Shown here: positions 35,368 through 61,310 of the stretch, piece by piece
Numbering within the stretch: position 1 is the stretch's first letter
Layout: every line of letters starts with the position of its first letter
Source of the DNA: a virus
Lineage: Duplodnaviria; Heunggongvirae; Uroviricota; Caudoviricetes
IMG/VR virus record: IMGVR_UViG_3300021255_002784
Coordinates: 24,416-88,415 of that record
DNA: 64,000 nt
Reading direction: 5' to 3' (one strand)
Program-made: the position numbers and the translations under genes
The notes under the pieces: generated by a model
Seen by the model: only the letters and a program-made list of their open reading frames with translations
Databases searched by the model: none
What the model was told of the DNA's origin: nothing

Positions 35368-35439
35368 GGGGAGTTAGCTCAATGGTAGAGCAATTGGCCG
35401 TTAACCAATAGGTTGTAGGTTCGAATCCTGCACTCCCCG
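35368..35439 (+). tRNA. tRNA-Asn (GTT)
   Basis: canonical cloverleaf, loop CCGTTAA. Confidence 0.85.
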
Positions 35440-35598
35440 CAAGTGGCGGGCGATTGATAGTTCTTACCGTCCAAGTTATAAGAACTATACAAAGAGCGAA
35501 ACGCAGGAGGCTCCATGAGAGGTGACTTTAAGCAAGACTCTCAAATCCAAAAACTTTATCTCGTAGAAGTTCCGGACACGGTTTTCATATGAGAGGTA

Positions 35599-35675
35599 CG
35601 TCTTTAAGCTTTGCACGGAGTGAAGTAGTATTGGGCTCTGTCCGGTAGAACGAGGTTCGAATCCTTGAAAGACGG
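35599..35675 (+). tRNA. tRNA-like element, possibly Arg (TCT), non-canonical
   Basis: 7-bp acceptor CGTCTTT/AAAGACG, good T-arm (CGAGG-TTCGAAT-CCTTG), D-stem GCTT/AAGT, anticodon arm with two G.U pairs and loop GCTCTGT (C33, G37). Confidence 0.35.
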
Positions 35676-35684
35676 CAATCGTAT

Positions 35685-35757
35685 TGGGAGATCTTCTAAA
35701 CGGTTAGGAAATCGGTCTGATACACCGGCAATCCGAGTTCGAGTCTCGGCCTCCCAA
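35685..35757 (+). tRNA. tRNA-Ile (GAT)
   Basis: cloverleaf, loop CTGATAC; A7.C66 mismatch. Confidence 0.75.
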
Positions 35758-35774
35758 CATAGTAAATACACTAA

Positions 35775-35847
35775 TGCCCTCTAGTATATCGAATTAGTAC
35801 ATCAGATTTTGATTCTGAGGGGCGAGGTTTGACTCCTCGGAGGGCAA
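35775..35847 (+). tRNA. tRNA-Gln (TTG)
   Basis: cloverleaf, loop TTTTGAT, U1-A72 pair typical of Gln; D-loop lacks GG. Confidence 0.75.
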
Positions 35848-36180
35848 CTTACAAATAAAACAATTTATGTGCAGCGCCTGACGACACATATCTTAGGAAT
35901 TGTAGGAACAACAATTTGGCAAATGTTGGGCACGGATAGTTGAAGGAAAACAACTTAAATAAACCAGAGTGCAGCGCCGAATGTGCCGTTGGGGATGGGG
36001 ACACACCTCTATAAATGAACAAAATGAATTATCTCCACCAACAAATCAACATGTCATTACGAACCAGCATAAGGTACGTACAATGTTCGTTTCTGAAAAG
36101 ATATAGGACTCTCAAAAAGACCAAGCTCCAGTTTGGCCACTGACTTGGGTGAGGAGAGGAAAATGAATGTTGATTTATAT

Positions 36181-36251
36181 TGCCTTTTGGTGTAATGGCA
36201 GCACATAGGGTTCTGGTCCCTAGAATCCGGGTTCGAGTCCTGGAGAGGCAA
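36181..36251 (+). tRNA. tRNA-Gln (CTG)
   Basis: cloverleaf, loop TTCTGGT, U1-A72. Confidence 0.75.
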
Positions 36252-36371
36252 CAAAAGCAATAAGTTGATGGTTCAAATCCATCTCGCGCGGAAGCGTTCA
36301 GTCAGACTTCCAAGTGATAGTTGGCCTGAAATTGGTCTTCGAAGATAAATGGTGTAAAACGTATTGCTCAC

Positions 36372-36455
36372 GGGAGAGCGCCAACGATGGTGAGTTGGGA
36401 TGGACTGTAAATCCATTGTCTTTTGACTCAGGGGGTTCGAATCCCTCCTCTCCCA
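36372..36455 (+). tRNA. tRNA-Tyr (GTA), type II
   Basis: loop CTGTAAA, long variable arm. Confidence 0.8.
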
Positions 36456-36483
36456 CATATGAAGATACTGGAATAAAATATAT

Positions 36484-36559
36484 ACCTCGGTAGGCAAATG
36501 TTGGTAAAGCCGATAGACTTAGGATCTGTTGTTTGTGGGTTCGAATCCCACTCGGGGTA
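36484..36559 (+). tRNA. tRNA with anticodon TAG (Leu by the code) but a type-I (short variable arm) structure
   Basis: acceptor ACCTCGG/TCGGGGT with two G.U pairs, loop CTTAGGA, 5-nt variable region, A73. Confidence 0.55.
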
Positions 36560-36582
36560 CAACAGATGAAATAGTATTGCAA

Positions 36583-36657
36583 GACTCCGTAGCTCAGTTG
36601 GATGAGAGCAACGCACTTTTAATGCGTGGGTCCTGGGTTCAAGTCCCAGCGGGGTCA
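36583..36657 (+). tRNA. tRNA-Lys (TTT)
   Basis: canonical, loop CTTTTAA. Confidence 0.85.
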
Positions 36658-36869
36658 CAATTATAACTAAAGTTAGAGGAAGAAGTCTTTTAGTTGTTCT
36701 CAGGAGAACGGCGGTTCGTTGAGGTACTGGGTCTGATAATGAAAAGGTTCCTCGTCAAAGGTTTAGGTCATAACCTTAGGATAATAACCCATAACTACTT
36801 TGAATGACCAGAGACTGTTATGGCAAAGGGGTCTTGACTAAAAGAGCGCATCACAAATCTAACTTATTT

Positions 36870-36942
36870 GGACCGGTAGCTCAGTTGGTAGAGCGCAGGC
36901 CTGAAGAGCCTGGCGTCGGCGGTTCGATCCCGTCCTGGTCCG
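36870..36942 (+). tRNA. tRNA-Phe (GAA)
   Basis: canonical, loop CTGAAGA. Confidence 0.85.
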
Positions 36943-36975
36943 CAATGAATAATGTGGCAGAGTGAAACGGATACG

Positions 36976-37051
36976 AGCTTTGTAATTATTGCTCAGAAAT
37001 CATTGGGGGCCCATAACCCACAGATAGCAGGTTCGACTCCTGCAGCCGCAA
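36976..37051 (+). tRNA. degenerate tRNA-like element (Met-like anticodon loop CCCATAA; no matching 5' acceptor)
   Basis: good T-arm GCAGG-TTCGACT-CCTGC and anticodon-like hairpin, but no complementary 5' acceptor or D-stem found. Confidence 0.25.
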
Positions 37052-37071
37052 CAAAATAAAAATATATAAAT

Positions 37072-37145
37072 GGTGTCATAGTTCAGCTGATTAGAATGCC
37101 TGACTGTCGATCAGGAGGTCGCGGGTTTGAGTCCCGCTGGCACCG
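37072..37145 (+). tRNA. tRNA-Asp (GTC)
   Basis: canonical, loop CTGTCGA. Confidence 0.85.
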
Positions 37146-37155
37146 CTAATATATG

Positions 37156-37227
37156 GGCCATGTAGTGTAACGGCTAGCACTTCACATTTGCAATGTGACG
37201 GAGGGGTTCGAATCCCACATGTGTCCA
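37156..37227 (+). tRNA. tRNA-Ala (TGC)-like element with defective T-stem/acceptor; ends in TCCA
   Basis: perfect anticodon arm TCACA-TTTGCAA-TGTGA, D-arm GTGT/GCAC, but T-stem and acceptor pairing are poor. Confidence 0.3.
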
Positions 37228-37237
37228 CAAACATCAT

Positions 37238-37319
37238 ACCCTGGTGGCGGAATTGGTAGACGCGCTTGACTCAAAATCAGGTCCGAAAGGGTGTGTGGGT
37301 TCGAGTCCTACCTAGGGTA
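37238..37319 (+). tRNA. tRNA-Leu (CAA), type II
   Basis: TG + GCG D-stem, loop CTCAAAA, variable hairpin, GTGGG-TTCGAGT-CCTAC. Confidence 0.8.
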
Positions 37320-37338
37320 CACGTAAAATAATATAAGT

Positions 37339-37662
37339 ATGAGAAAAATTATCAATGCGTTCGCAGTCTTGTTTATATTGATTGGATTAAATGCATGTCA
37401 GGTACAGAAAATCAATCCAAAATGGACACAGGATCCGCGAGTAGAAGTAGTAAATGAACAGACAGTCATATTCCGGGATGTGATTAGGATTGAAATTATT
37501 TCAAACAATCCAGCGCAAATCACATACGTTTACGATTTGAAACATGGTAGACCGGTCAAGACAGCACGAAGTTCATTTGAAGTAAACGTAAAACACGGCG
37601 ACTATCTTATTCAGTCGAATCGCAAAATCACCAAAACACAGTACGAGGTCGTTATTGAATGA
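37339..37662 (+). CDS. small secreted/lipoprotein-like protein (107 aa) embedded in the tRNA array
   Basis: signal-peptide-like N-terminus MRKIINAFAVLFILIGLNAC (lipobox-like LNAC). Confidence 0.4.
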   Translation: MRKIINAFAVLFILIGLNACQVQKINPKWTQDPRVEVVNEQTVIFRDVIRIEIISNNPAQITYVYDLKHGRPVKTARSSFEVNVKHGDYLIQSNRKITKTQYEVVIE

Positions 37663-37901
37663 CCTCTGCTCATGAGGCTATTATCACAATTGGTTAATAT
37701 GGTGGGTTCGAATCCCTCTAGTCCCACAACCGGTAAAAAGACATATGTCTAGCGCAAAGCCGAGTGTCCTGCGCGATATAAAAAGGACTGCCAAGTCATC
37801 TTGAGGAGCTATAGATGAGCTACACGCTGTTGTGGTAAGTGAACAGAAAAGCTTTAGGGGTTTCAAAATTTGTAAATCTTTGTGTTGATGAGAAGCAACT
37901 A

Positions 37902-37971
37902 GTCTCGGTAGCTCAGTTGGTTAGAGCTCTCCGCGGAGGAGAGGTCGCTGGTTCAAGTCCAGTCTGAGACG
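37902..37971 (+). tRNA. tRNA-like gene with truncated anticodon arm (70 nt; possible anticodon CGG)
   Basis: perfect acceptor, D-arm (GCTC-AGTTGGTTA-GAGC) and T-arm, but only 19 nt between D and T arms (CTCTCC-GCGGA-GGAGAG, 5-nt loop). Confidence 0.4.
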
Positions 37972-37975
37972 ATGT

Positions 37976-38048
37976 GCCCGGATAGCTCAGTTGGTAGAGC
38001 AACTGATTTGTAATCAGTCGGTCGTCAGTTCGAGTCTGACCCCGGGCT
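37976..38048 (+). tRNA. tRNA-Thr (TGT)
   Basis: canonical, loop TTTGTAA; A7.C66. Confidence 0.8.
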
Positions 38049-38141
38049 CGCATGCATTTCCAGGATTCAATTGGAATCGAATTTCATATTTGGCGGGTGA
38101 CTAAAATTGATTATGGTGTTAATACTGGCAGAACACCCCAT

Positions 38142-38215
38142 GCAGGAATAGCTCAGTTGGCCAGAGCGGGACCTTGCCAAGGTTCAGGTCGCGAGTTCGA
38201 GTCTCGTTTCCTGCT
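38142..38215 (+). tRNA. tRNA-Gly (GCC)
   Basis: canonical, loop TTGCCAA. Confidence 0.85.
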
Positions 38216-38430
38216 CCAGGATATAGCCCAGATACGGGTCTGATGAAGACATTCGTTAGTAGTTGCGGGACGCCAATACGAAACAGTTTGTTGGATTCTA
38301 AAACATGAAGTTTATGGAGACTGTGGTGGTTGCAAACTCCGCAGTGGAAATGATGATGTATGTAAATAGAGTGCTCCCTGTGGAGGGGAGAGGTCGAAGA
38401 ATAACCCGTAAAAACTTCTGTCCTGACCAT

Positions 38431-38502
38431 GACCAATGAGTCCAGGCGGTTAGGCACCAATCTGCAAAATTGGGTAGCGGGGTTCAACTCCCTGATTGGT
38501 CA
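38431..38502 (+). tRNA. tRNA-Cys (GCA)
   Basis: loop CTGCAAA, T-loop TTCAACT. Confidence 0.75.
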
Positions 38503-38730
38503 CAAAATGGGTTCAAGCTGTACATAGGACCCTCCGGTAATTCCAGGTATGTATGTTTAGACCGGACGCTCGGGAGCTTATAGTCCTGCGATAGTGCGAC
38601 TAAATTACGGGACATGGTGTACGGTGCATATCTAGGGGGCTAGAAGGTGAGGGGTAAATAATGCTAGTTGCGAATAACCTCTTTATCAGCAATGGTACAG
38701 GTTCGACTCCTGATGTCTCGACAAATATAT

Positions 38731-38804
38731 GGCCTTATCGTCTAACCTGCGCAGGACGTTACTCTCTCAAGGTAAAAATCCGAGTTCGATCCTCGGTGAG
38801 GCTA
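38731..38804 (+). tRNA. tRNA-Glu (CTC)-like
   Basis: acceptor with two G.U pairs, loop CTCTCAA, D-loop without GG, T-arm CCGAG-TTCGATC-CTCGG. Confidence 0.5.
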
Positions 38805-38936
38805 CTATTGCAACTGGATTGGAAAACAGAGCACCATTCTAATCTCATGAGAGTTAGTAGGCAGGCATAGAAGATTCAGACTCTCAGACCCCGAGATAGC
38901 TCAGCTGGTTAGAGTCCAGTTCTCGGGACGCATTAT

Positions 38937-39011
38937 TGGTTCTGAGCTCGGCTGGTGCGTAGCGGCGGTCTCATAAACCGAGGGACGTGGGTTCAAATCC
39001 CACAGAGCCAA
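38937..39011 (+). tRNA. tRNA-Met (CAT), elongator-type
   Basis: loop CTCATAA, U1-A72 paired, large D-loop. Confidence 0.7.
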
Positions 39012-39086
39012 CACACAAAAAATTAAATGATCCATTAAAGATCAGAAGAGAGCTTCTATATATTATTATAGAAGAACGAAACATAC

Positions 39087-39159
39087 TGGGGTATAGTTCA
39101 GCTGGTAGAATGTTGGTCTCCAAAACCGAAGGTCGCGGGTTCGAATCCTGCTGCCCCTG
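39087..39159 (+). tRNA. tRNA-Trp (CCA)
   Basis: loop CTCCAAA, 3' CGCCCCT-like acceptor as in E. coli Trp; U1.U72 mismatch. Confidence 0.75.
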
Positions 39160-39264
39160 CTAAAGTTCGAAAGTCCTTAACGAAAGCGGTGTGATCAACA
39201 TGTCAACCTTAAACAAGTTGAAGACGCAGTGAAAATCTGACATCGTAAGAGGGAAGAACTTTTT

Positions 39265-39345
39265 ACTCCCATGCTGGAAATGGTAGACAGGCCAGACTAA
39301 GGATCTGGTGTCTTCGACGTGCGGGTTCGAGTCCCGCTGGGAGTA
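39265..39345 (+). tRNA. type-II tRNA with anticodon AAG (Leu by the code; unusual A34)
   Basis: TG + CTG/CAG D-stem as in the other Leu tRNAs, loop CTAAGGA, variable hairpin GTC-TTCG-GAC, perfect acceptor ACTCCCA/TGGGAGT. Confidence 0.6.
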
Positions 39346-39404
39346 CGTAAAACGGTAATCTAGTATACATTTGAAAAAGTTAGACTACCATTTTATTATA
39401 GATC

Positions 39405-39878
39405 ATGAGAAAAGATTTAATTGGAAGAACCCAGGATATTCTTAAATGGGTTGCTGAAGGATGGTCATTTACAGAAATGTACAAGGAACTCGGTTGTTCC
39501 CGAGATGCACTTCATTATTTCTTGAAAACCAGAAAGATCGAATATAAAGGTAATCAGAGTAGAAAAGGGAGAAAAATAGATCCTAAAAGAAAAACGGCTC
39601 TTCAACTTATAGATGGAATTGAAAATGGGCTCAGTATCGGTAATTCTACATTAAGGGACAGACTCATCCAAGACAAGCTCAAAGAATATAAGTGTGAAGT
39701 ATGTGGGGCGAATGAATGGTTCGGAAAACCCATACCGTTAGAGTTGCATCACAAGGATTTCAATCATCACAACTCTAAATTAGAAAATCTTCAAATACTA
39801 TGTCCAAATTGCCACGCATATATTCATAAATACAATATAATCACTCCTATGTTGGAAATGGTAGACAGGCCAGACTAA
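39405..39878 (+). CDS. HNH homing endonuclease (HTH + HNH) inserted in the tRNA array
   Basis: C-terminal HNH motif CEVCGANEW...LELHHKDFNHHNSKLENLQILCPNCH; the last 9 codons are encoded by a duplicated tRNA 5' half. Confidence 0.7.
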   Translation: MRKDLIGRTQDILKWVAEGWSFTEMYKELGCSRDALHYFLKTRKIEYKGNQSRKGRKIDPKRKTALQLIDGIENGLSIGNSTLRDRLIQDKLKEYKCEVCGANEWFGKPIPLELHHKDFNHHNSKLENLQILCPNCHAYIHKYNIITPMLEMVDRPD

Positions 39879-39923
39879 GGAGTTGGTGTCTTTGACGTGA
39901 GGGTTCGAGTCCCTCTTTGGGCA
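39844..39923 (+). pseudogene. chimeric/pseudo tRNA (5' half copied from the 39265 tRNA, 3' half from a different type-II tRNA)
   Basis: 33-nt near-identity to the 39265 tRNA up to the anticodon loop, then divergent 3' half with compensatory T-stem (GAGGG/CCCTC) and acceptor 3' TTTGGGC that cannot pair with the 5' end. Confidence 0.5.
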
Positions 39924-40286
39924 CAGGTCTTTGACATATTGATACCGCAAGAAAAGAATAAGTTCAAAGATTCAACACGTTTTTATGCGATTGAGTAGGC
40001 AGTTGGAATAATAAGCGTCATAAGATGAGGGAGTCGACGTTGAAATCGAATTGTTACCAGAGCAGCACTTACTGGGAGTATTAACAAAGTCTTGAAAGCT
40101 TCGAGATTTCATTGATGAACATAGCCCGAAGTCAACAAAACGAGAACGATTCAACGGGTTCGAATCCGATGAATCCAACACAAACCGGATGGTGCAACCG
40201 GATAGTCACGGGATTGAAACTTACTGAGTATGTTCCGCTTCAGAGTACTTCGGAGAACCCCTATATCTTTTAAGCGGTATCTTTTT

Positions 40287-40358
40287 GCCCCGATAGTTCA
40301 ACGGATAGAACATGTGGCTACGGACCACAGGATCCGGGTTCGAATCCTGGTCGGGGTA
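40287..40358 (+). tRNA. tRNA-Arg (ACG)
   Basis: canonical, loop CTACGGA. Confidence 0.85.
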
Positions 40359-40366
40359 CTTTTTAT

Positions 40367-40439
40367 GCGGGAGTAGCTCAGCTGGTAGAGCATCTGCCCT
40401 CCAAGCAGAGGGTCGCGAGTTCGAGTCTCGTCTCCCGCT
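40367..40439 (+). tRNA. tRNA-Gly (TCC)
   Basis: canonical arms; loop CCTCCAA (C33). Confidence 0.7.
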
Positions 40440-40514
40440 CAATCCTTCCAGGTTTAAGTTGAAAGAGCGGCCTGGTAGCTATGTTCTGGAATAGCAAAAA
40501 ACTCATCGCTCCAC

Positions 40515-40541
40515 AAGGATTTTGAAGGTTGAATCCTTTTT
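40515..40541 (+). terminator. rho-independent terminator-like hairpin inside the tRNA array
   Basis: AAGGATT-TTGAAGGTTG-AATCCTT + TTTTTT. Confidence 0.5.
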
Positions 40542-40544
40542 TAT

Positions 40545-40618
40545 GGTGTCTGTAGCTCAGCTGGTAGAGTGGAGGATTGTGGTTCCTAAGGTCGTGGGTC
40601 CGAGTCCCACCTGACACC
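40545..40618 (+). tRNA. tRNA-His (GTG) with encoded G-1
   Basis: loop TTGTGGT, extra 5' G opposite C73, T-loop TCCGAGT. Confidence 0.75.
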
Positions 40619-40638
40619 CATACACAAAACTATTCCAA

Positions 40639-41032
40639 TATGAATTTCAAAACGATAACACATCGTCAATCATGGAAAGATGCTGAAAGTATCTATATCA
40701 TGGAGAGTACAGGCGGCGCAATGATCAGAATCACCAAATACACTGATAATGAAGCCTATCTGTTATCTGACTTGTACGTCAATCCGGTATTGAGAAAACG
40801 TGGACTGGGTACTCTGATGATTGAAAGTGCTATCAAGGAGTGTCGTACTCATGCGCAGCTGAATGACATTGAGCCATGTGTCGTTGAGATGGCAGTTAAT
40901 GATCATTCCGAGAAGTTCTGTGCTGAATGGTATCAACGAATGGGGTTCGTTCTTAATAGAAGTGAAGCACCGATCGATACAACATTCGACAATGAACTTG
41001 AGTGGTGTGATATCTATAGACTCGTTGTCTGA
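40639..41032 (+). CDS. GNAT-family N-acetyltransferase
   Basis: motif A-like VNPVLRKRGLGTLMIESAI; the ORF as listed starts inside tRNA-His, so the start was moved to MNFKT. Confidence 0.55.
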
Positions 41033-41040
41033 TGTTTACA

Positions 41041-41115
41041 AGACTCCGTAACGGAGTCCCGCTGCACGGTCTCCGTGACTGCGTTAATGAAATCCGGAGG
41101 CTTTCAAGACTCCGT
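41041..41115 (+). repeat. inverted copy of the intergenic repeat cassette plus a GC-rich hairpin sub-element, abutting a tRNA 5' end
   Basis: reverse complement reads CGGAGTCTTGAAAGCCTCCGGATTTCATTAACGCAGTCACGGAGACCGTGCAGCGGGACTCCGTTA; palindrome GACTCCGTAACGGAGTC. Confidence 0.6.
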
Positions 41116-41180
41116 AGCTCAGTGTATAGAGCAGCAGTTTTCTAAACTGCCGGTCCTGGGTTAGAGTCCCAGCGGAGCCA
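41108..41180 (+). tRNA. tRNA-Arg (TCT) lacking G18G19 and C56
   Basis: loop TTTCTAA, D-loop AGTGTATA, T-loop TTAGAGT, A2.C71 mismatch; the first 15 nt are identical to tRNA-Lys. Confidence 0.6.
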
Positions 41181-41327
41181 CATTTTCTATTATTTTTTTC
41201 TTCATCAACGAAGTCCTGAAAAACTTTAGTTTTTTCACTAAATATTTTTCGTGTTTTCATATATTTATACATAACGCAGTCATAAATTCCTACGGGATTT
41301 CATTAACACTCAAAACAATATAGATAT

Positions 41328-41684
41328 ATGAAGCACATTCTTTGGATAGATGACCTGAGGGATCCACATTCTCCGAAGTGGAAAGAGTATCTCGATTATG
41401 CCGCAGAAGAGTTCTTAGATGTTCCTCTGAATGAGTGTACAGTAAGCTGGGCACGGAGCAAGAACGAGTTTATCCAGCATCTCATTCTTGAGACCTGGCC
41501 GGATCTAGTTTGTTTCGATCACGATCTCGGACTTGGTCCTACAGGGTACGACTGTGCCAAGTACTTAGTAGATATGTGCATGGAGACAGGCAATCCTCTT
41601 CCAGAGTTTGTATCCCAGTCGTCTAATCCAGTCGGGCGAGAAGACATCATTCGTTTACTTGAAAACTATAGGAAACACTTATAA
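41328..41684 (+). CDS. hypothetical protein (118 aa)
   Basis: ORF after a promoter box. Confidence 0.45.
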   Translation: MKHILWIDDLRDPHSPKWKEYLDYAAEEFLDVPLNECTVSWARSKNEFIQHLILETWPDLVCFDHDLGLGPTGYDCAKYLVDMCMETGNPLPEFVSQSSNPVGREDIIRLLENYRKHL

Positions 41685-41694
41685 TAACATTTCA

Positions 41695-42609
41695 ATGAAA
41701 AGACAAATCATTCTATTACAAGGACCGCCTCGAAGTGGTAAGACGACTTGGGCGAAAACACACTGGGACACAGCACCTCTAGATACCTACGTATATATGA
41801 TCAGCACCCACGACCTGAGCTGGAAGTCCACAGATAGGGGTTATATTATAAATACTCTGGACACTGTTCTAGAGACAGAGCGTAAAGCTATCATGGAGCG
41901 CCTCAGTTATTATGATAGAGACTGGGACATCATTGTCGACGCTTACAACGCCAATCCTAAGCGGGTTCAGGAGTTCGAAAAACTCGCGAACAAGATGGGT
42001 GCAGAATTGGTAATCAAGCAGTTCTATATTCCTTACTCTGAAAGTTACAAACGCAACAAAGAGGTTGGAGTCCATTCCAAAGAATACATTCCTCGGGACG
42101 TTTTGGCCGGGTTCTATGATACGTACTACCACGAATGGTACCGGGACGAGCTCACAGACAAGAGAGTCATCAGACAACCGGAACCTACTCTTCCTCCTTG
42201 CATCATCTGCGACCTGGATGCTACACTAGCCTTACATCAGGGACGGGAACCATTCGAATGGGACCGACTCCTGACTGACAAGATCGACCCTCGCTTGCGA
42301 GATCTGTTGAACTTCCATATGACGTCCGGCACCAAGGTGTTCTTTCTAACAGGTCGCACCCAACGCGCACGACTGGATACCTTGATGTGGTTGCAAAATC
42401 CGAAACAGGGTCTGTGTGATGGGTGGGAACTGATCACTCGCAGTCAAGGAGATTTCTCTTCGGGTGATGTATACAAACTCAAGATGTACGAGCAACTCAT
42501 ACAAGGCAAGTACAATGTACTGTGCGTCTTCGAAGACAGTAACAAGTGTGTGAAAATGTGGAGAGAACTCGGTCTCTTGACTTGCCAGGTAGCAAATTCA
42601 GAATACTAA
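41695..42609 (+). CDS. polynucleotide 5'-kinase/3'-phosphatase (T4 Pnk/PseT-like)
   Basis: N-terminal P-loop GPPRSGKTT kinase domain; C-terminal HAD phosphatase with IICDLDATLA (DxDxT). Confidence 0.65.
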   Translation: MKRQIILLQGPPRSGKTTWAKTHWDTAPLDTYVYMISTHDLSWKSTDRGYIINTLDTVLETERKAIMERLSYYDRDWDIIVDAYNANPKRVQEFEKLANKMGAELVIKQFYIPYSESYKRNKEVGVHSKEYIPRDVLAGFYDTYYHEWYRDELTDKRVIRQPEPTLPPCIICDLDATLALHQGREPFEWDRLLTDKIDPRLRDLLNFHMTSGTKVFFLTGRTQRARLDTLMWLQNPKQGLCDGWELITRSQGDFSSGDVYKLKMYEQLIQGKYNVLCVFEDSNKCVKMWRELGLLTCQVANSEY

Positions 42610-42610
42610 T

Positions 42611-42841
42611 ATGCTTGATATGACACCCGAAGAGTTCGAAGCCGAAGTGCAAGGTACCATAGGTCTCATCTGCGACTGTGTTCCGTACGACACACCTAAC
42701 TATCACGAAGAGGTTCGTAAGCTGGCTGAAGACATAGTACGCGAACTACACGATCCGGATTCGGAAACCAATCAAAAAATTGCAAGCGAACAGGTCGAAC
42801 ACGATGATATTATGTTCGATGCCGGATACATAGACTTCTAA
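42611..42841 (+). CDS. hypothetical acidic protein (76 aa)
   Basis: ORF. Confidence 0.4.
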   Translation: MLDMTPEEFEAEVQGTIGLICDCVPYDTPNYHEEVRKLAEDIVRELHDPDSETNQKIASEQVEHDDIMFDAGYIDF

Positions 42842-42963
42842 TATATGACCGAACAAGAACTCGCACTCTATCGTAAGTGTACTCGAAAGAAAAGATGTAC
42901 CAGATACGACTACGAGTCTGTCCATGAATATGATAACGAAACCAACGAAAACGATTATATACT

Positions 42964-43476
42964 ATGACAAAAGAAGAACAACGCACAAACATCCTTAATA
43001 TGCTGAGAGACAACAAGATCAACGTCAACGATGCCCTGTTGATGCTCAACCGATTAGATGAAGAGGACTCACCTGTCGGCGAAGGTGTTCCTGTAACAGC
43101 CAAAACCCAAAAATCTTATCAGGACCTGATTGAGGATATCGTGGACCAAGTCATATCTGGCATGGACATGGATCGCGTATATCAGATTATGAAAGATATG
43201 GATTGGAACTATGTGAGTAAACCTGTGACATACGATGATATCGTCGAATGTGCCAAAGATAATGTTCGACACACTCTGGAATATCTGGTGAATAATAGAA
43301 TCAAAACAGGCGACGCATCAGCCATGTCTGGTACGGGAGGGTTCTTGTGCCGAGCCTGGGTGGACGAGGATGACGAAGACAACATCCAGGTGGAACTCGG
43401 GTTCCAACCGATAACTGGGATCGGAGACGGTCATTTAGATAAGTTGGTCGCAGCCAAAATAGAAATGGCGTCGTAA
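42964..43476 (+). CDS. hypothetical protein (170 aa)
   Basis: ORF. Confidence 0.45.
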   Translation: MTKEEQRTNILNMLRDNKINVNDALLMLNRLDEEDSPVGEGVPVTAKTQKSYQDLIEDIVDQVISGMDMDRVYQIMKDMDWNYVSKPVTYDDIVECAKDNVRHTLEYLVNNRIKTGDASAMSGTGGFLCRAWVDEDDEDNIQVELGFQPITGIGDGHLDKLVAAKIEMAS

Positions 43477-43683
43477 AAAAGATCCAAACAACAAATACGC
43501 CAGGCCTAAAATCTTCGATCATTTCTATATATTATAATTGAGGATGATACCGAAGGATAGTGCCCTATAGTTTTTCTACTAAAATTAGATGTTCTTTCTT
43601 ATCTATTATATAGAAGAACAACAAATACGAGATATGCGACTTGTGCTTGCACATGAGGGACCCTATATCACGTATTTGTTATA

Positions 43684-43773
43684 TGGAGAGTTGTCAGAGT
43701 CCGGTTTATTGTGCGAATCTTGAAAATTCGTGGGCGTGATGAGCGCTCCGGGGGTTCGAATCCCTCACTCTCC
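43684..43773 (+). tRNA. tRNA-Ser (TGA), type II, with encoded CCA
   Basis: loop CTTGAAA, long variable arm, 3' ACTCTCC-T-CCA. Confidence 0.8.
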
Positions 43774-43786
43774 TCCAGAGTTATAT

Positions 43787-43874
43787 TGGTGAGTTGGCCG
43801 AGTGGCTTAAGGCGCTGGTTTGCTAAACCAGTGATCTCGAAAAGAGATCCGTAGGTTCGAATCCTGCACTCACC
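43787..43874 (+). tRNA. tRNA-Ser (GCT), type II
   Basis: loop TTGCTAA, variable hairpin GATCTC-GAAAA-GAGATC. Confidence 0.8.
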
Positions 43875-44215
43875 GCACCAGTTACTTGAGCTGGTCACCA
43901 GAAGAGTAACAGCCTTTGGACAAAGACCAATGTCGCGAAGGAGTGGTTGGAGAGGTTCTAAATACAAACCCGAGAAACCTGAAAAGGCGAAGAACGCAGT
44001 TTCCTCAAATTAGGTACCATAAGTTAGATAACACCTTAAAGCCTAATGAACATCGGTAATAATATCAATTCCACCGATAATCAAAATGGAGTGGTCGCGG
44101 CTGAGTCGAGAGAAAGCTGAGATTTATTAGAGAGCTCATATAATATCTCTTTTCGGTACGAACTTACCGTTAGTGGATGATTACCACGGGTTATACAGCC
44201 CTATCGTCTAGCGGA

Positions 44216-44288
44216 CCAGGACGCCTCTCTTTCACGGAGGAAACACGAGTTCGAATCTCGTTGGGGCTACTTGTGGGATGAGTAGCAG
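44216..44288 (+). tRNA. tRNA-Glu (TTC)
   Basis: loop CTTTCAC, canonical arms. Confidence 0.8.
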
Positions 44289-47494: not shown

Positions 47495-50400
47495 TTACGT
47501 TGTGCTAACTAATATCTTACCATCATTGGTTCTGAAGAAGTTGCGCAATGCTGACTCGATCTGTGAAGATATATCAATCTGTGCAGCTGCCTGAACATCC
47601 TTATTTTGACCAGCTCCTTGTAGGGTTGGATTAGCACCTCCTGGAGGAACAGGACCGCCAGTTGTTGGGGCATTTGCAAGTTTCTCAAAGGCTTCACCAG
47701 TACGTTGGGTCACTTGTTCTTGCCGTTCGGTATATTCTTGGATGTGTTGATCAGCATCGTCGATAGTCTTTCGGAGACCCTCTAGGATTGGTGCCAACTT
47801 CTCATTGATGACGTCTGCAAGCTTGTCGAAGTTGCCGTTGATCGCTTGTGCGAACGCAGCCGCATGACCAAACATCTTGGCGAGTGAATCCAACTTGTTG
47901 ATATTCAGACCGTTGATTCGGTTGATCAACTTATCGGTGTCCTTGACTACAGCACTATAGGATTGTGAATGTTCTACCACAAATGGTAGGAGACCTTCTT
48001 CACCATTCAATAGTTTATTGAACGATTCAGATATCTTCTTGCAGGTAATGTCTATCTTTTGTAGGTTAGCATCGTCAATACCTTGTAGCTCGTCCACAGC
48101 CTTCTTCATGAGTTTGGTGATGTTCATGATGGTTGTGAACAATGGAATAGTGGCTTGCAATGAATCTAGTCCTCCGTCCACATCACCAAGTTTGACTTTG
48201 GAATCGTTGAGAGTAGTGATGATAGAATCCAGCCCAACCAACAAACCGTTGGTCATGGTTGCAGCATTAGTTCCGATCTTTTCACCACCCATCTCATTGT
48301 AAGTCTCCCAACAAGTCTTCATGATGTTTGCTGCTGCTAGTACAACAGATAGTGCAGCTACGGATATACCGATTCGTACGAAGGCACACAACAGATCCAC
48401 GATGTCTGCCAGATTGCCGAGGCCTATGGTCTGAAGTAGTTTGGACAATCCCTTACGTGGCTTGCCGTTCGGTTCTTCAATAGGCTCTGATAAGATACCT
48501 ATGATATTACCCACGGCCTTCATAATCTCCCCAACTCGCGTCTCTACCATATTGAAGTCCAAACCATCTGTGGTCTCAACCATCCATTTCATCTCCTTCA
48601 CCAGTACGGCTAACATAGCCAATACAACGATCGATAGTGCTACAACCACTACTTTGGTGAGCAGTTTGAATATGGTTACAAAGTCCGAGCCAGAAACATA
48701 GGATATCAACTTGGAGAACTTATCATCCTCTTCACCCATTTCAGCGTTAGGCTTATAGTTTATAACTGTGTCTATAATACGATAAGCGCCTTCGATGATA
48801 GAGACTACCACGGTGGGTGCATTGTCTAGGATTGATTTGTTAGCCTCGTATATCTTAGTTAGCCCTATGATAACTCCTACTAATACGATCAAAGTGATTA
48901 CCACAAACACGGTCAAGAATAATATAGTGACCTTAACAATCAGATCGAATATGCCTAGTGCTTCTTGACCTAGTACTGTTCCGAGTATGGTTCTAATCCA
49001 ACTCCTATCAGTATCTTCTTTGGTGCGTTTGAAATCGGCGTTGAGAACTGTTTGGATTACTTGTTCAGCAGTGTTTATGATCTTATCAACTGATATTATA
49101 ACAGCATCTACATCCAAAAATTTTGCAATCCATACAATCATTATCAGCATGGTTGCAAGTGCCAACAATGCCAAAATGCCTATAGTGATCGCAGCCATTG
49201 CTATAACACCAATCAACATAAATGGTGCAACAAAAGATGCCAGTGTCATAAATCCAGCAATAGCTAACACTATCAATCCCATGAATCCTATAGTGATAAG
49301 AGTACTCAATAGATTATCTTGCAATACCTTGCCCGCTAATACAATCATCATTAGTGTAGTGGCTATAATCATGAGCACACCGCATACTACTATCATAGGC
49401 ACCACCACTTTTATAGCTTGGAATGCTGCTCTTCTCGCTAGTTTCGCCATCAACCTAATCATTTTAACCATGATCCCAAATGCTACTACTATAGATGCCA
49501 ATCCTAAGATGAATGGGATGAACAGCAACAATACCAACATACCGATTACTGATATGACCGCGACAGTTATGGCTATCTGTTTTATGGCTATTTTCAAAAG
49601 AGCGAACATCACCGTCATATTAAGGACAGACATCATCAGCTTGTCACGGCGTTTCTTATTGAAGTTTATGCTGATAGTTTTTGCTATTTCATTCAACCCG
49701 GCTATTAGTATTCTTGTTATTCTAGACAACCTTCTCATTCTTCTTCGAATCGATATGGCCGTTGGTACATCCAATTTCATGAACTGATTGACTGATTCAG
49801 TGAATGATCTCAGAGCAGAAATAACAGTTGATGTTGACGTAATAAATTGTTTTATAATTGTAAGTTGAATGTTTTTTTGAGCATAGTTATTGAGTCTGTT
49901 TATAAATTCTGCAAGTATCTTTAAGTCCAGATATAGCACAATAGTTTTGTAGAGCATGACAACACTATTCGGTGTGTCTATAGCTACAAAATCATGCATT
50001 TTGGTTGCCAGTGTCATAACCATGTTGACCATATTATTGATGCTGGTCAAAATCAATTTTCTTGCACCAGAATTTAGAATTGCCGCCATTGTGCCAGCAG
50101 ACGATGTCAATCCTAGTATACCTATGGCAAGAATGTCAACATTCAACTTCAACATGGTCATTTTCCACATCAATGAGATTTGACTAGGAACTTCCATATT
50201 GATGATGTTTTCTATCATCTTGAATATCCCTATTAGTAATTGAAGTATGCCTGCTTTAGAAAAATCCGTTTTTGTGATATCAGCAGAAGGATCATATCCA
50301 GTTAGAATAGATTGAAGATTTTTTGCAGAGTCTCCATCATTCAACTCTTTTAAGTTCGCGAGTGATTCTTGAATATATGTAAACAGGTCAGTCATAATAT

Positions 50401-50578
50401 GCATCAGATTATGTACGTTTTTGCTAGCCTGATCTGCTTTTTTGTTTATAGAAGCATAGTCGCAGTTGGCATTGATCGCATCGATAATGCCAGCCAAATC
50501 CTCAGTAACAGATGTAATCTGATTGATGATATCACTTAAATTCACTACTCCACCATGCACTTCTTTACTTTTAGCCAT
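47495..50578 (-). CDS. large multi-TM, Ala/Ile-rich protein (1027 aa), tape-measure-like
   Basis: more than 10 hydrophobic helices interspersed with coiled-coil-like segments, Gly/Pro-rich C-terminus; this composition is typical of phage tape-measure or ejection proteins. Confidence 0.35.
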   Translation of the reverse strand: MAKSKEVHGGVVNLSDIINQITSVTEDLAGIIDAINANCDYASINKKADQASKNVHNLMHIMTDLFTYIQESLANLKELNDGDSAKNLQSILTGYDPSADITKTDFSKAGILQLLIGIFKMIENIINMEVPSQISLMWKMTMLKLNVDILAIGILGLTSSAGTMAAILNSGARKLILTSINNMVNMVMTLATKMHDFVAIDTPNSVVMLYKTIVLYLDLKILAEFINRLNNYAQKNIQLTIIKQFITSTSTVISALRSFTESVNQFMKLDVPTAISIRRRMRRLSRITRILIAGLNEIAKTISINFNKKRRDKLMMSVLNMTVMFALLKIAIKQIAITVAVISVIGMLVLLLFIPFILGLASIVVAFGIMVKMIRLMAKLARRAAFQAIKVVVPMIVVCGVLMIIATTLMMIVLAGKVLQDNLLSTLITIGFMGLIVLAIAGFMTLASFVAPFMLIGVIAMAAITIGILALLALATMLIMIVWIAKFLDVDAVIISVDKIINTAEQVIQTVLNADFKRTKEDTDRSWIRTILGTVLGQEALGIFDLIVKVTILFLTVFVVITLIVLVGVIIGLTKIYEANKSILDNAPTVVVSIIEGAYRIIDTVINYKPNAEMGEEDDKFSKLISYVSGSDFVTIFKLLTKVVVVALSIVVLAMLAVLVKEMKWMVETTDGLDFNMVETRVGEIMKAVGNIIGILSEPIEEPNGKPRKGLSKLLQTIGLGNLADIVDLLCAFVRIGISVAALSVVLAAANIMKTCWETYNEMGGEKIGTNAATMTNGLLVGLDSIITTLNDSKVKLGDVDGGLDSLQATIPLFTTIMNITKLMKKAVDELQGIDDANLQKIDITCKKISESFNKLLNGEEGLLPFVVEHSQSYSAVVKDTDKLINRINGLNINKLDSLAKMFGHAAAFAQAINGNFDKLADVINEKLAPILEGLRKTIDDADQHIQEYTERQEQVTQRTGEAFEKLANAPTTGGPVPPGGANPTLQGAGQNKDVQAAAQIDISSQIESALRNFFRTNDGKILVSTT

Positions 50579-58273: not shown

Positions 58274-58885
58274 ATGACAAGAGAAGAATGGTTAAGACAT
58301 GCTGTTGAAGAACTGAATATCACTATCTTCGGTGGTGATTTGGACCTACTCAATCACGACTTCCAGATTGCTTGTGGACGTGTTCGCGGTTCTAAGCCTA
58401 CAGAAACAATCCAACCCTACGAAGGTGAGGATGTACATTTGGATGACTTCTTCCCAACCACAATCAGTGTCAACTTCACTATCAAAGATCCTATCGAGAT
58501 GCTTACGACCCTGACTTATGAGTGCATCCATGCTTTTTTCAATGTGAAAGGAACAGGTAAGGCATTCAAGAAACTGGCCGACACGTACTATTTCGAGGCA
58601 CCTTACAAAGAGGTTCATCCGAGTGATCATCTCCAGGAGTTGATTCAGACCTCCTATGAACACCTGGTAAAGAACTACGGTAAGTTCCCTGGTGTCCCTG
58701 TTGTGTTTCCAAAAGAAGAATCTAAGCAAGGTAAGAAAAACGTACTAGTAGCTTTCTGTCCTGAATGTGGATACGAGCTCAAAATCTCTCGCAAAACTCT
58801 GGAGAAGTACAACAACGGATTGCCGACATGTCCATGTGGTACAAAGATGGCACTGGATCTGTCTGACGAAGAAGAAAACAACTAA
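58274..58885 (+). CDS. hypothetical protein with C-terminal zinc ribbon (203 aa)
   Basis: CPECGYELK...CPCGTKM. Confidence 0.45.
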   Translation: MTREEWLRHAVEELNITIFGGDLDLLNHDFQIACGRVRGSKPTETIQPYEGEDVHLDDFFPTTISVNFTIKDPIEMLTTLTYECIHAFFNVKGTGKAFKKLADTYYFEAPYKEVHPSDHLQELIQTSYEHLVKNYGKFPGVPVVFPKEESKQGKKNVLVAFCPECGYELKISRKTLEKYNNGLPTCPCGTKMALDLSDEEENN

Positions 58886-58911: not shown

Positions 58912-60192
58912 ATGAAGAAATTTTTTATTGCGATTTTGATATCGCTCATGACTGTGTTCTCAGTGAACGCTGCAGACCGAGCACACACACTCAAAGTGTT
59001 GAACTGGGCCGACTACATTGACCCGCAGGTGCTGGAAGACTTCCCGGCTTGGTATCAAGAACAAACCGGCGAAACGGTAGAGGTCATCTATCAGACGTTC
59101 GATATCAACGAGACAGCGCTGACGTCTATTGAGATGGGTAAGGAAGATTACGACTTGTTCTGTCCTTCGGAGTACATCATCGATCAAATGATCAAGAAAA
59201 ATCTACTATTGCCTATTGATCGAGATTTCGGTAATACTTGGGACTATACACAATATATTGCACCGTTCGCTGCTGAGAAACTCCGTTTAATGAGTGATAC
59301 TGTGGATGTATTGCAGTACACTGTAGGATATATGTGGGGTACAGCTGGATTTCTTTATAACATAGACAAGGTACGTCCCGAGGAGGTTAGTAGCTGGTCT
59401 GCTATTCTTAATCCGCAATACAAAGACAAACTCCTAATGAAAGACGCATACCGCGATGTATATTCAGTACTGGTACAGTATGCCTATCGAGAGGATATTG
59501 CTAACGGAAACGTAAACCGACAGGAACTGGTCGAGAATCCTATACAAGAACGTATAGACACGGTCCTAAGTATTCTTCTTGCTGCTAAAGATAATATCGC
59601 AGGATGGGAGGTAGACTTCGGCAAGGAGGAAATGATCAAAGGTGAAATGCTAATTGATCTCATGTGGTCCGGTGATGCTCAATGGGCTATTGATGAGTCT
59701 CCTGATGCTCCGCTCGATTACATAGTGCCAAATGAAGGATCTATCGTATGGTTCGATGGGTGGGTTATTCCTAAGTACGCGAAGAACGTCCAGGCGGCAC
59801 GTTACTTTATTAACTATATGTGTATGCCGGAGAACGCTATTGCAAACATGGAAGAAGCAGGGTACGTATCTGTAATAGCATCACCAGAGATTGTTGAAGC
59901 AATGATTGACTCTACATACGACCCAGTAGATGTGCGTTATTTCTTTGGTTCTGAGTACTATGATGTTCCCCTGAATCCTATATTCTACCCAGATCAATCG
60001 GTTATTGATCGATGTGCACTTATGCATGACTGTGATAGTAAACAGATCGATTCTCTGTTGGCTATGTGGGGCAAAGCCAAACACACTAATCACGGATGGA
60101 CGATGTGGTTTTTTGGCGCAGCTATTTTAGTAGTACTAATAGGATGTCTCATCTCCATGATCTCACCCGGTTTCAAAAATAAACACTCTTGA
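58912..60192 (+). CDS. PotD/PotF-like periplasmic polyamine-binding protein homolog with signal peptide and C-terminal TM anchor
   Basis: signal peptide MKKFFIAILISLMTVFSVNA; LKVLNWADYIDP...F resembles the PotD N-terminal signature; C-terminal hydrophobic helix WTMWFFGAAILVVLIGCLISMI. Confidence 0.55.
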   Translation: MKKFFIAILISLMTVFSVNAADRAHTLKVLNWADYIDPQVLEDFPAWYQEQTGETVEVIYQTFDINETALTSIEMGKEDYDLFCPSEYIIDQMIKKNLLLPIDRDFGNTWDYTQYIAPFAAEKLRLMSDTVDVLQYTVGYMWGTAGFLYNIDKVRPEEVSSWSAILNPQYKDKLLMKDAYRDVYSVLVQYAYREDIANGNVNRQELVENPIQERIDTVLSILLAAKDNIAGWEVDFGKEEMIKGEMLIDLMWSGDAQWAIDESPDAPLDYIVPNEGSIVWFDGWVIPKYAKNVQAARYFINYMCMPENAIANMEEAGYVSVIASPEIVEAMIDSTYDPVDVRYFFGSEYYDVPLNPIFYPDQSVIDRCALMHDCDSKQIDSLLAMWGKAKHTNHGWTMWFFGAAILVVLIGCLISMISPGFKNKHS

Positions 60193-60442
60193 TATGGAAA
60201 CTCTTTCTGGACAATATATCACAGATACTATCCAAATGAAAGGCATCATGAGGATACTTAATAGCACAGGAACACCAGGACTGAAAGGTATATACATATC
60301 CGAAGATGGGAGACATGTCAGGTTTGATCTAAAAGATGAAGACGAATTCTAACAAGATAAAGGTGTCTCAAGTGGATATGGAGCACTTTCCTTACGAAAG
60401 TCTTAAGATAGATCCTTATTGGGACGATTTATATAACCCCAG

Positions 60443-60662
60443 AAATCACTAACGCAGTCGCGGAGACCGCGCAGCGGGACTCCGTTAACAAGGTCTTGAA
60501 AGTCCTTGGGATTTCATTAACAAAGTCTTGAAAGTCCTTGGGATTTCATTAACAAAGTCTTGAAAGTCCTTGGGATTTCATTAACAAAGTCTTGAAAGCC
60601 TTTGGAATTTCATCAACGAATGTCTTGAAAGAACCCCAGAATTTCATTAAAGATTTCTGGGG
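60443..60662 (+). repeat. five tandem 32-bp repeat units (AACAAAGTCTTGAAAGTCCTTGGGATTTCATT) ending in a terminator hairpin; preceded by a GC-rich hairpin sub-element
   Basis: units at 60487, 60519, 60551, 60583 and 60615 (the last two diverged); upstream CGCGG-AGA-CCGCG hairpin; terminal AACCCCAGAA...TTCTGGGGTT stem. Confidence 0.8.
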
Positions 60663-60701
60663 TTATTTATATTTTAATCATATTTCAAATAATTATATGA
60701 T

Positions 60702-61310
60702 ATGAACGGCAAGATATTCTATTTTATTCTTATTTTTATCTGGTTCTTTTTCATCACGACCTATATGGTTATGGGTCCACGGAACACAGAATCTCAAAAA
60801 CAACAAGTAGAAATCGCTCAAGACACGGTATCACTGGACTCACTCATATCAGAAGTTGATGCATACATTCAAACCATTGCACCTGGTTCAAATTTATCAG
60901 GTTGCGCCGTGGTAGATGCCTGTCTCAAACATAATATGGATATTGTGTTTGTATTGGCGCAAGGACAGAAAGAATCTCATTTTGGTACAGCCGGTGTAGC
61001 CCGAAAGACGAACTCGGTGTTCAATGTGATGTCTTATGACAATCGATCGGCTGACGAGATATTGACTCGAGGGCACGGTTACGCTCATCCGGATCAATCC
61101 GTAGAACCCTATATACATTTGATTCGTAATGACTATATGGTGGACGGTAAGACAGAGCAGGACCTGTTGACATGTTTCGTTAACAAGAACGGACATCGAT
61201 ACGCTAGCAATCCTCATTACGAAGAATCACTACAAAGATTATACAATAAGATAGATAGTACCACCAGGATATCTGAGTTGTACAGCAAATACTCTTATAA
61301 TTTTCACTAA
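60702..61310 (+). CDS. peptidoglycan hydrolase, N-acetylglucosaminidase (GH73/FlgJ-like) with N-terminal TM anchor
   Basis: VLAQGQKESHFGTAG...NSVFNV and RYASNPHYEESL resemble glucosaminidase-domain signatures; N-terminal TM. Confidence 0.55.
   Translation: MNGKIFYFILIFIWFFFITTYMVMGPRNTESQKQQVEIAQDTVSLDSLISEVDAYIQTIAPGSNLSGCAVVDACLKHNMDIVFVLAQGQKESHFGTAGVARKTNSVFNVMSYDNRSADEILTRGHGYAHPDQSVEPYIHLIRNDYMVDGKTEQDLLTCFVNKNGHRYASNPHYEESLQRLYNKIDSTTRISELYSKYSYNFH

Follow-up and report, generated by a model that had tools for sequence, protein, structure and literature searches.

A solitary potD-like gene, predicted to encode a membrane-tethered polyamine-binding protein, in a T4-like phage

The window analysed here is a stretch of 64,000 nucleotides from the virus record IMGVR_UViG_3300021255_002784 (IMG/VR, Caudoviricetes; positions 24,416 to 88,415 of that record), and the element under study is a potD-like gene that it carries, with a 203-codon gene just upstream and a small open reading frame (ORF) and a glucosaminidase gene downstream (Table 1). 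An initial annotation of the locus, made from the nucleotide sequence, had proposed that this gene encodes a secreted, membrane-anchored, PotD-like polyamine-binding protein, acting either as an auxiliary metabolic gene or as a receptor-masking or superinfection-exclusion factor. Below we examine the architecture, family and ligand pocket of the encoded protein (phage PotD), the origin of the gene and its retention in related phages, and the role that it might play during infection.

Architecture, fold and ligand pocket of phage PotD

A Kyte-Doolittle scan of the 426-residue protein returned two hydrophobic segments only, at residues 3-22 (MKKFFIAILISLMTVFSVNA, then AD) and 394-423 (WTMWFFGAAILVVLIGCLISMI), and these coincide with helices at residues 2-24 and 395-422 in an AlphaFold2 (AF2) model. 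The N-terminus combines a basic n-region, a hydrophobic core and V-N-A at positions -3 to -1, has no lipobox cysteine, and lines up with the signal and cleavage region of E. coli PotD. Signal-peptide and transmembrane (TM) calls were made from hydropathy, the -3/-1 rule, the E. coli PotD alignment, the AF2 helices and family-wide conservation. By these heuristics phage PotD is predicted to be exported to the periplasm, or extracytoplasmic face, and to adopt a type I topology, in which the C-terminal helix anchors the binding domain to the periplasmic side of the inner membrane and a short, positively charged tail is left in the cytoplasm. The cleavable-looking signal peptide and the C-terminal TM helix of the initial annotation were both borne out, and its picture of a binding protein that faces the periplasm from the inner membrane is supported by the predicted export signal and the helix.

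Phage PotD matches the Pfam family SBP_bac_8 at 1e-23, and its two best NCBIfam families are PotD (3e-38) and PotF (7e-30), followed by YdcS (1e-4) and PhnS2 (1e-3). All 22 of its sequence matches in the PDB are polyamine binders, among them 4gl0 (2e-44), 4eqb and E. coli PotD 1pot (2e-31). The AF2 model, for which 30 homologues served as input, has a mean predicted local distance difference test score (pLDDT) of 87 and a predicted template-modelling score (pTM) of 0.81. When the model was compared with the PDB by Foldseek, ranks 1-30 were all taken by polyamine receptors (PotD, PotF, SpuD/E, VcPotD1, TpPotD; E 2e-27 to 1e-19), with target-normalised template-modelling scores of 0.77-0.87; 8y5i_E, the PotD of the PotD-PotABC complex, is among them. 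After rank 30 there is a clear drop to other families of solute-binding protein (SBP), with YdcS next at 9e-17. The profile and structure searches that the initial annotation had suggested as its check thus gave PotD and PotF as the best profiles, polyamine receptors as the best structures, and did not place the protein in an unrelated SBP family.

The LNWADYIDP motif noticed in the initial annotation is present at residues 30-38 and lines up with Y-N-W34-T35-E36-Y37-V-P-P of E. coli PotD, that is, with the W34-Y37 segment of the pocket. To compare the rest of the pocket we mapped the spermidine contacts of E. coli PotD (W34, T35, E36, Y37, S83, Y85, D168, E171, W229, W255, D257 and Y293; numbering verified), a list of 12 residues that we take to be the one given in the 1996 structure and mutagenesis papers. 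It is corroborated in part by PMC11414716. Eight of these 12 residues are identical in phage PotD (W34, Y37, S83, Y85, W229, W255, D257 and Y293), while E36 and E171 are replaced by Asp and T35 and D168 by Ala. All six phage sequences carry the consensus of the cellular family described below at all 12 positions. In the 1996 mutagenesis of Kashiwagi and Sugiyama, E171, W255 and D257 were reportedly the most critical PotD residues; their equivalents in phage PotD are D182, W280 and D282. Taken together, profile, fold and pocket residues support the assignment of the product as a PotD/PotF-type polyamine-binding protein, and on grounds of homology only, its ligand would be a polyamine.

Judged by its gene content, the window is part of a bona fide T4-like phage of an undescribed lineage. 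Its PHROG matches include a portal, an endolysin/amidase, NrdD, DNA ligase, polynucleotide kinase, a ThyX-type thymidylate synthase and several homing endonucleases. An identical PotD protein lies mid-contig on a 197,476-bp metagenomic contig with phage genes on both flanks; this contig runs beyond the window into T4_baseplate and terminase (Terminase_6N) genes, and a T4 gp2 homologue is encoded on a related contig. The portal is 34-42% identical to those of uncultured huge phages, Sphingomonas phage PAU and Lak phages, and a megablast search of INPHARED phages with window positions 56-64 kb returned no match. That the gene sits in a phage, as first annotated, is borne out by the portal, endolysin, T4 baseplate, gp2 and terminase genes together with 29 tRNA genes.

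Host origin of potD and its retention in the phage clade

In a large protein database phage PotD finds a small group of sequences (P0001-P0006) at 71-100% identity and then hundreds of proteins of 431-450 residues at 55-63%. For the exact protein no public name was found. The nearest cellular homologues (n = 114, Paludibacteraceae/Bacteroidales) are 54-67% identical to it, and the best 80 loci in species-representative genomes, at 53-62% identity, come nearly all from Paludibacteraceae/Bacteroidales metagenome-assembled genomes (MAGs) of rumen, horse and human gut. Cellular potD is the fourth gene of a canonical potABCD arrangement, in which an ATP-binding cassette (ABC) ATPase with a TOBE domain and two BPD_transp_1 permeases precede the SBP; by tblastn, potA-potB-potC lie directly upstream of potD in about 68 of the 80 loci. 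Six cellular loci (L017, L027, L039, L067, L079 and L085), each with a complete upstream flank of 6 kb, hold a solo potD, TM-anchored like the others, that lacks potABC over that distance, and linkage to potABC is typical of the PotD family, not obligatory. The possibility that these orphan loci are prophages was rejected, as they are flanked by ordinary bacterial genes that bear no resemblance to the phage proteins. The potD ORF of L067 is longer, at 577 residues, and one MAG, JAZNJI01, carries two potD copies (L051 and L065).

The signal peptide, the boundary between A and ADR(A/E)HTLK, and the C-terminal TM helix with its basic tail are found in all 120 of the nearest homologues. An exhaustive search of 1.84 billion cluster representatives yielded a wider set, the 131 full-length proteins among the top 150; 83 of these, some as low as about 31% in identity, likewise have a C-terminal TM helix, while the rest have none and a few are fused to permeases. 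In a large Bacteroidales subfamily PotD is normally TM-tethered at its C-terminus, which is useful for annotation. Since the anchor is shared by every one of the nearest homologues and by most of the wider representatives, we rejected the idea that it is a phage adaptation. The initial annotation had treated the membrane anchor as noteworthy: the anchor is indeed present, but it is the native architecture of host-family PotD and not special to the phage.

Within the phage clade, the order 203-residue gene (phrog_6361), potD, small ORF, glucosaminidase, phosphoesterases is kept in all five contigs examined; four more assemblies, independent of one another and from different samples, have potD at the same insertion point, with proteins 71-86% identical. 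In a neighbour-joining tree of the ectodomain the six phage PotD sequences are monophyletic (94 of 100 bootstraps) and branch apart from every cellular sequence sampled; they share 74-88% identity with one another and at most 67% with any cellular sequence. Pairwise comparison of three phage copies gave a ratio of nonsynonymous to synonymous substitution rates (dN/dS) of 0.07-0.11 at near-saturated dS (0.7-1.6), similar to that of the neighbouring SbcD-like gene and of the 203-residue gene. A tblastn search detected no potA, potB or potC across the 64-kb window and the phage loci L005, L007, L008, L089 and L090, and no further polyamine or transport gene was present among 20 additional window ORFs scanned against Pfam. 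Collectively, the comparative evidence establishes a single acquisition of potD by a phage ancestor, followed by syntenic retention under strong purifying selection, and a host origin of the gene, which in the phage DNA examined stands without genes for the permeases (PotB, PotC) or the ATPase (PotA). The relatives of the protein indicate that the phage probably infects Bacteroidales, Paludibacteraceae or close relatives, of rumen and hindgut.

Docking surface, proposed role and gene neighbourhood

In the cryo-electron microscopy structure of the E. coli PotD-PotABC complex, PotD docks mainly via the loop D212-E222, which lies between PotB and PotC; the E220A/G221A/E222A triple mutant binds PotABC weakly, and Y56 and T58 of the N-lobe also contribute (PMC11414716). 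The corresponding stretch of phage PotD, residues 233-245, is among the most conserved of the PotD family: apart from positions 242 and 245, which vary, each residue (233-241, 243 and 244) is the same or nearly so across the six phage sequences and at least 92% (mostly 99-100%) of the 114 cellular homologues. Y60 and T62, the counterparts of Y56 and T58, are identical in the phage proteins and in essentially all cellular homologues. Of the 195 alignment columns that are at least 95% conserved in the cellular proteins, 154 are unchanged in all six phage copies, and none of the fixed phage differences falls at a mapped pocket or docking-loop position. Outside these regions, the juxtamembrane KGDNL of the cellular family has become KHT(D/N)HGW in the phages. 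By this conservation phage PotD appears to keep the PotBC-docking surface.

We lean towards the view that phage potD acts as an auxiliary metabolic gene: its product would join the PotABC importer of the host and raise polyamine uptake, much as has been proposed for cyanophage PstS. This was one of the two options of the initial annotation, and it fits a pocket that equals that of host PotD at all 12 positions, a docking loop that is kept, and a dN/dS of about 0.1. A T4-like phage ancestor would have taken potD, the receptor subunit of host PotABCD, without potA, potB and potC. During infection phage PotD would be exported via Sec, lose its signal peptide and, like host PotD, stay anchored through the C-terminal TM helix on the periplasmic side of the inner membrane, where it would bind periplasmic polyamine and dock onto host PotBC. 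The extra receptor copies could raise polyamine import, or maintain it while host gene expression is shut down, and the polycations brought in would be used in phage DNA replication and translation and to neutralise the charge of the packaged genome of about 197 kb. Productive docking on host PotBC, increased uptake and a benefit to the phage are steps that we infer.

There is precedent for such a course of events. In a preprint on cyanophage PstS, this high-affinity phosphate binder is described as abundant in infected cells, the phosphate uptake rate of the host rises after infection, and the authors' model joins PstS to host PstCA in a chimeric transporter (bioRxiv 10.1101/2021.07.20.453049). 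As for the substrate, some phages package polyamines in the virion, and in polyamine-depleted E. coli both DNA synthesis and maturation of T4 are reduced (review PMC7226272).

Several observations weigh against the uptake role. The NCBIfam PotD score of 131 bits compares with an equivalog cutoff of 582 and denotes family-level membership, not orthology to E. coli PotD; with scores so far below the cutoff, the ligand may be spermidine, putrescine or some other polyamine. Two pocket positions are unlike those of E. coli PotD (T35 to Ala, D168 to Ala) and E. coli E220 is Lys in phage PotD, so that the docking argument is built on conservation within the Bacteroidales and not on identity to E. coli. 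Eighteen fixed phage differences at positions at least 95% conserved in the family could mean altered function, as could the cytoplasmic tail, which has about 20 residues with about 10 K/R in the cellular proteins and 5-22 residues with 2-6 K/R in the phages. The probable host is deduced from the relatives of PotD, and the DNA covered in the search for potABC amounts to about 75 kb of the 197-kb genome, which leaves room for phage potABC genes elsewhere. More polyamine uptake is also not necessarily good for a phage, because T4 infection leaves cellular polyamine synthesis and accumulation unchanged (review PMC7226272) and because phage genome replication in P. aeruginosa is inhibited by persistently high levels of polyamine in the cell (PMC9992862).

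A bolder version of the uptake role can be formulated, in which T4-like Bacteroidales phages of about 200 kb hijack host PotABC with their own tethered receptor, the phage-specific changes (the truncated tail, the new juxtamembrane motif and the 18 fixed substitutions) tune that receptor to out-compete host PotD or to escape its regulation, polyamine is limiting and contested for the replication of large phage genomes in the gut, and the gene is the first auxiliary gene for polyamine uptake to be described in a phage. We offer this version tentatively and consider it less likely than not.

The P. aeruginosa findings would also suit a protein of opposite effect, a transport blocker or decoy that docks onto PotBC or sequesters periplasmic polyamine, lowers its entry and thereby evades a polyamine danger response: this bacterium takes up polyamines from lysed kin, to the detriment of phage genome replication when intracellular levels stay high (PMC9992862). 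A blocker would need the docking loop as much as a receptor would, and the 18 fixed substitutions and the truncated, less basic cytoplasmic tail could be its marks. However, all 12 ligand-contact positions are kept under strong purifying selection, as expected for a working receptor, the fixed differences spare the mapped pocket and docking loop, and the danger-signal mechanism is known only from a gamma-proteobacterium with Gac/Rsm signalling. Cyanophage PstS, to our knowledge the sole experimentally characterised phage-encoded SBP, goes with increased uptake. We therefore regard a blocker as unlikely.

Superinfection exclusion or receptor masking, the second option of the initial annotation, would have the tethered PotD keep the DNA of competing phages out or stop them from penetrating the envelope, perhaps in concert with the glucosaminidase. 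A periplasmic domain on an inner-membrane anchor does resemble the topology of some exclusion proteins, such as T4 Imm and Sp, and potD lies beside another envelope-directed gene in a block of small, early-type genes. Against this, PADLOC matched none of potD, the 52-residue ORF, the glucosaminidase gene and the 203-residue gene, and the only PHROG match of PotD is phrog_22867, an SBP-like family of unknown function. Nor would an exclusion factor have a reason to keep 154 of the 195 family-conserved positions, including the whole pocket and docking loop, and between potD and the glucosaminidase gene lies a conserved terminator-like hairpin. This option found no support in our results, and we consider it very improbable.

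At slightly longer odds still stands a periplasmic polyamine sensor, in which binding would report a cue such as the density of the host or the lysis of kin and, by way of the TM helix and tail or of a partner, adjust the course of phage development. SBPs of the PotD fold serve as sensor inputs in other systems, an example being NspS with MbaA in Vibrio; the altered juxtamembrane motif and tail could reflect a new partner, and the 52-residue ORF, which is conserved, uncharacterised and likely coupled to potD, would be at hand. No signalling domain or recognisable partner is present, though, the tail has merely 5-22 residues, and the conservation of the PotBC-docking loop is more simply explained by transport.

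Finally, other PotD matches in the phage database turned out to be cellular, which raises the question of whether the gene belongs to the phage at all. A tblastn search with PotD returned 26 records, of which five were followed up, the Listeria, Staphylococcus, Enterococcus and Salmonella records not being among these five. Three UNVERIFIED virome contigs hold potABCD as a whole operon, an E. coli 'phage' record consists of a prophage flanked by potC-potD of the host, and Pseudomonas phage Y10 (UNVERIFIED), one of the five, was fetched only and not classed. For phage potD, mis-assembled or mis-binned host DNA, or a recent passenger with no phage function, is barely credible and is ruled out by synteny (a mid-contig position within 197 kb, with the same insertion point in four more assemblies), by phylogeny (a clade of its own, at most 67% identical to cellular sequences) and by dN/dS (about 0.1 at near-saturated dS).

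The 52-residue ORF that follows potD is likely translationally coupled to it, judged by the spacing, and has no TM segment and no family match. The 24-codon micro-ORF further downstream is probably a real tiny gene, given the pattern of its conservation; in related phages its 3' end overlaps the terminator hairpin. The hairpin, with its T-rich tail, has an equivalent in all four aligned phages and probably marks the end of the potD transcription unit, with the glucosaminidase gene starting a separate one. Functional coupling of potD and the glucosaminidase was judged unlikely, because this conserved terminator-like hairpin separates the two genes. A tandem repeat array just before the hairpin forms an insertion of about 195 bp that is present in the window phage only and missing from three related phages. 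Scans for Sigma-70 promoters, terminators and the Bacteroidota -7 motif TAnnTTTG gave no enrichment over shuffled sequences and so say nothing about expression timing.

The membrane-anchored glucosaminidase that the initial annotation had placed downstream was recovered, with its PF01832 domain and N-terminal hydrophobic anchor. By its sequence, the N-terminal segment is more like a stable signal-anchor than a signal-arrest-release domain, and the enzyme may be a second, membrane-tethered peptidoglycan hydrolase besides the amidase-type endolysin that the window encodes separately.

Elsewhere in the window, a flotillin-like protein of the membrane-scaffold type has no PHROG or PADLOC match. 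NrdD is apparently split into two parts, and the ORF between them, which has a C2H2/Di19-type zinc finger, is possibly a mobile-element insertion; two HNH/homing endonuclease ORFs are present as well. The terminase of phage locus L005 shows a faint, below-threshold match to the Pfam family Intein_splicing. The largest ORF of the window runs on the minus strand within a mostly plus-strand genome and has no PHROG or Pfam match.

Table 1. Features of the potD locus and of the rest of the window (window coordinates; aa, amino acids)
Feature	Position	Strand	Remarks
203-aa gene, phrog_6361	58274-58885	+	function unknown; Cys-rich zinc-ribbon-like motif at the C-terminus; potD follows after 26 nt; synteny kept in related phages
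potD-like gene	58912-60192	+	ATG start, 426 aa + stop; predicted signal peptide, polyamine-binding domain, C-terminal TM anchor
Predicted Sec-type signal peptide MKKFFIAILISLMTVFSVNA	58912-58971	+	aa 1-20; predicted cleavage after A20 or A21; no lipobox Cys
Predicted mature periplasmic domain	58972-60090	+	aa 21-393; bilobed type II solute-binding fold plus C-terminal extension of ~70 aa, last helix 376-390
Pocket segment N-W-A-D-Y	59002-59016	+	aa 31-35; aligned with E. coli PotD N33-W34-T35-E36-Y37
Docking-type loop EVDFGKEEMIKGE	59608-59646	+	aa 233-245; by homology mapping, E. coli PotD N210-E222, includes loop D212-E222
Predicted C-terminal TM helix WTMWFFGAAILVVLIGCLISMI	60097-60162	+	aa 396-417; hydropathy, AF2 model
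Predicted cytoplasmic tail SPGFKNKHS	60163-60189	+	2 K, no R
52-aa ORF	60194-60352	+	starts 1 nt after potD stop; conserved in related phages, dN/dS 0.2-0.28
24-aa micro-ORF MEHFPYESLKIDPYWDDLYNPRNH	60378-60452	+	conserved in L007, L008, L089; differences mostly at third-codon positions
Tandem repeat, 32 bp x 4.6	60485-60631		consensus TTAACAAAGTCTTGAAAGTCCTTGGGATTTCA, 93% matches; between potD unit and glucosaminidase gene
Terminator-like hairpin AACCCCAGAA...TTCTGGGGTT, then ATTTATATTTT	60632-60675	+	-17 kcal/mol, z = -2.8
Glucosaminidase gene	60702-61310	+	PF01832 8e-10 at aa 71-185; N-terminal hydrophobic anchor aa 1-27, IFYFILIFIWFFFITTYMVM
HNH/homing endonuclease ORF	435-1952
HNH/homing endonuclease ORF	6923-8611
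Amidase-type endolysin	4288-5067
NrdD, N-terminal part	8743-10317	+	apparently split
ORF with C2H2/Di19-type zinc finger	10359-11477		372 aa; between the NrdD parts
NrdD, C-terminal part	11461-12582	+	apparently split
Flotillin-like ORF	31253-32755	+	500 aa; SPFH/Band_7 (8e-10), Flotillin (2e-7)
29 tRNA genes	34681-44270	+ (all)	most amino acids; duplicates for Leu, Pro, Gln, Gly, Arg, Ser, Glu
Largest window ORF	47495-50578	-	1027 aa

Comparison with known systems

The closest likeness of phage PotD is to the PotD proteins of Bacteroidales/Paludibacteraceae (431-450 residues), annotated as 'ABC transporter substrate-binding protein' or 'spermidine/putrescine transport system substrate-binding protein', with which it shares signal peptide, SBP domain, C-terminal extension, TM helix and positive tail, as well as identical residues at the 12 pocket positions and the docking-loop core, at 54-67% overall identity. 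Unlike these, the phage gene stands alone, without potABC in the examined DNA, and its products form a separate clade with 18 fixed substitutions, a changed juxtamembrane motif and a shorter tail.

E. coli PotD (1POT; 8Y5H/8Y5I), Lmo0810 (4GL0) and S. pneumoniae PotD (4EQB) have the same bilobed fold, with target-normalised template-modelling scores of 0.81-0.87, at 25-28% identity to phage PotD. The phage protein is longer by about 50-100 residues, which include the C-terminal extension and TM anchor, and its docking loop reads EVDFGKEEMIKGE where E. coli PotD has NSDNPANPYMEGE. E. coli PotD is free in the periplasm, whereas phage PotD is predicted to be membrane-tethered; Gram-positive PotDs are usually lipid-anchored. 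Binding proteins that are membrane-tethered, as phage PotD would be, also occur as TM-anchored SBPs of archaea and actinobacteria and as PotCD-type fusions of Mycoplasma. These are cellular and encoded with their own transporters, whereas phage potD is alone.

A full-text literature search found no description of a phage-encoded potD, of potD as an auxiliary metabolic gene or of any other phage gene for polyamine import, and a scan of IMG/VR with the family alignment gave pattern matches and no confirmed relative. The nearest parallel among phages is cyanophage PstS (for example that of P-SSM2): like phage PotD it is a solute-binding subunit of host origin that a T4-like phage carries by itself, and it is presumed to use the host ABC permease. 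It differs in belonging to another SBP family, in binding phosphate where phage PotD would bind polyamine, in the phylum of its host and in being periplasmic where phage PotD is predicted to be membrane-tethered; the PstS case also has experimental backing, whereas phage PotD is known here from sequence and model.

If our interpretation of phage potD is true, the strategy of combining a phage receptor with a host pump, as in PstS, would reach a further class of substrate, another host phylum and the anaerobic setting of gut and rumen. Packaged phage DNA is neutralised by polyamines and T4 DNA synthesis requires them, yet in Pseudomonas they also serve as a danger signal against phages; a single phage gene with a defined pocket and docking loop offers a handle on whether polyamine supply limits the replication of large phages. 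As a protein, phage PotD is unremarkable within its large cellular family, and PstS is an earlier case of the solo-receptor strategy; what is new is a phage that carries this receptor alone.

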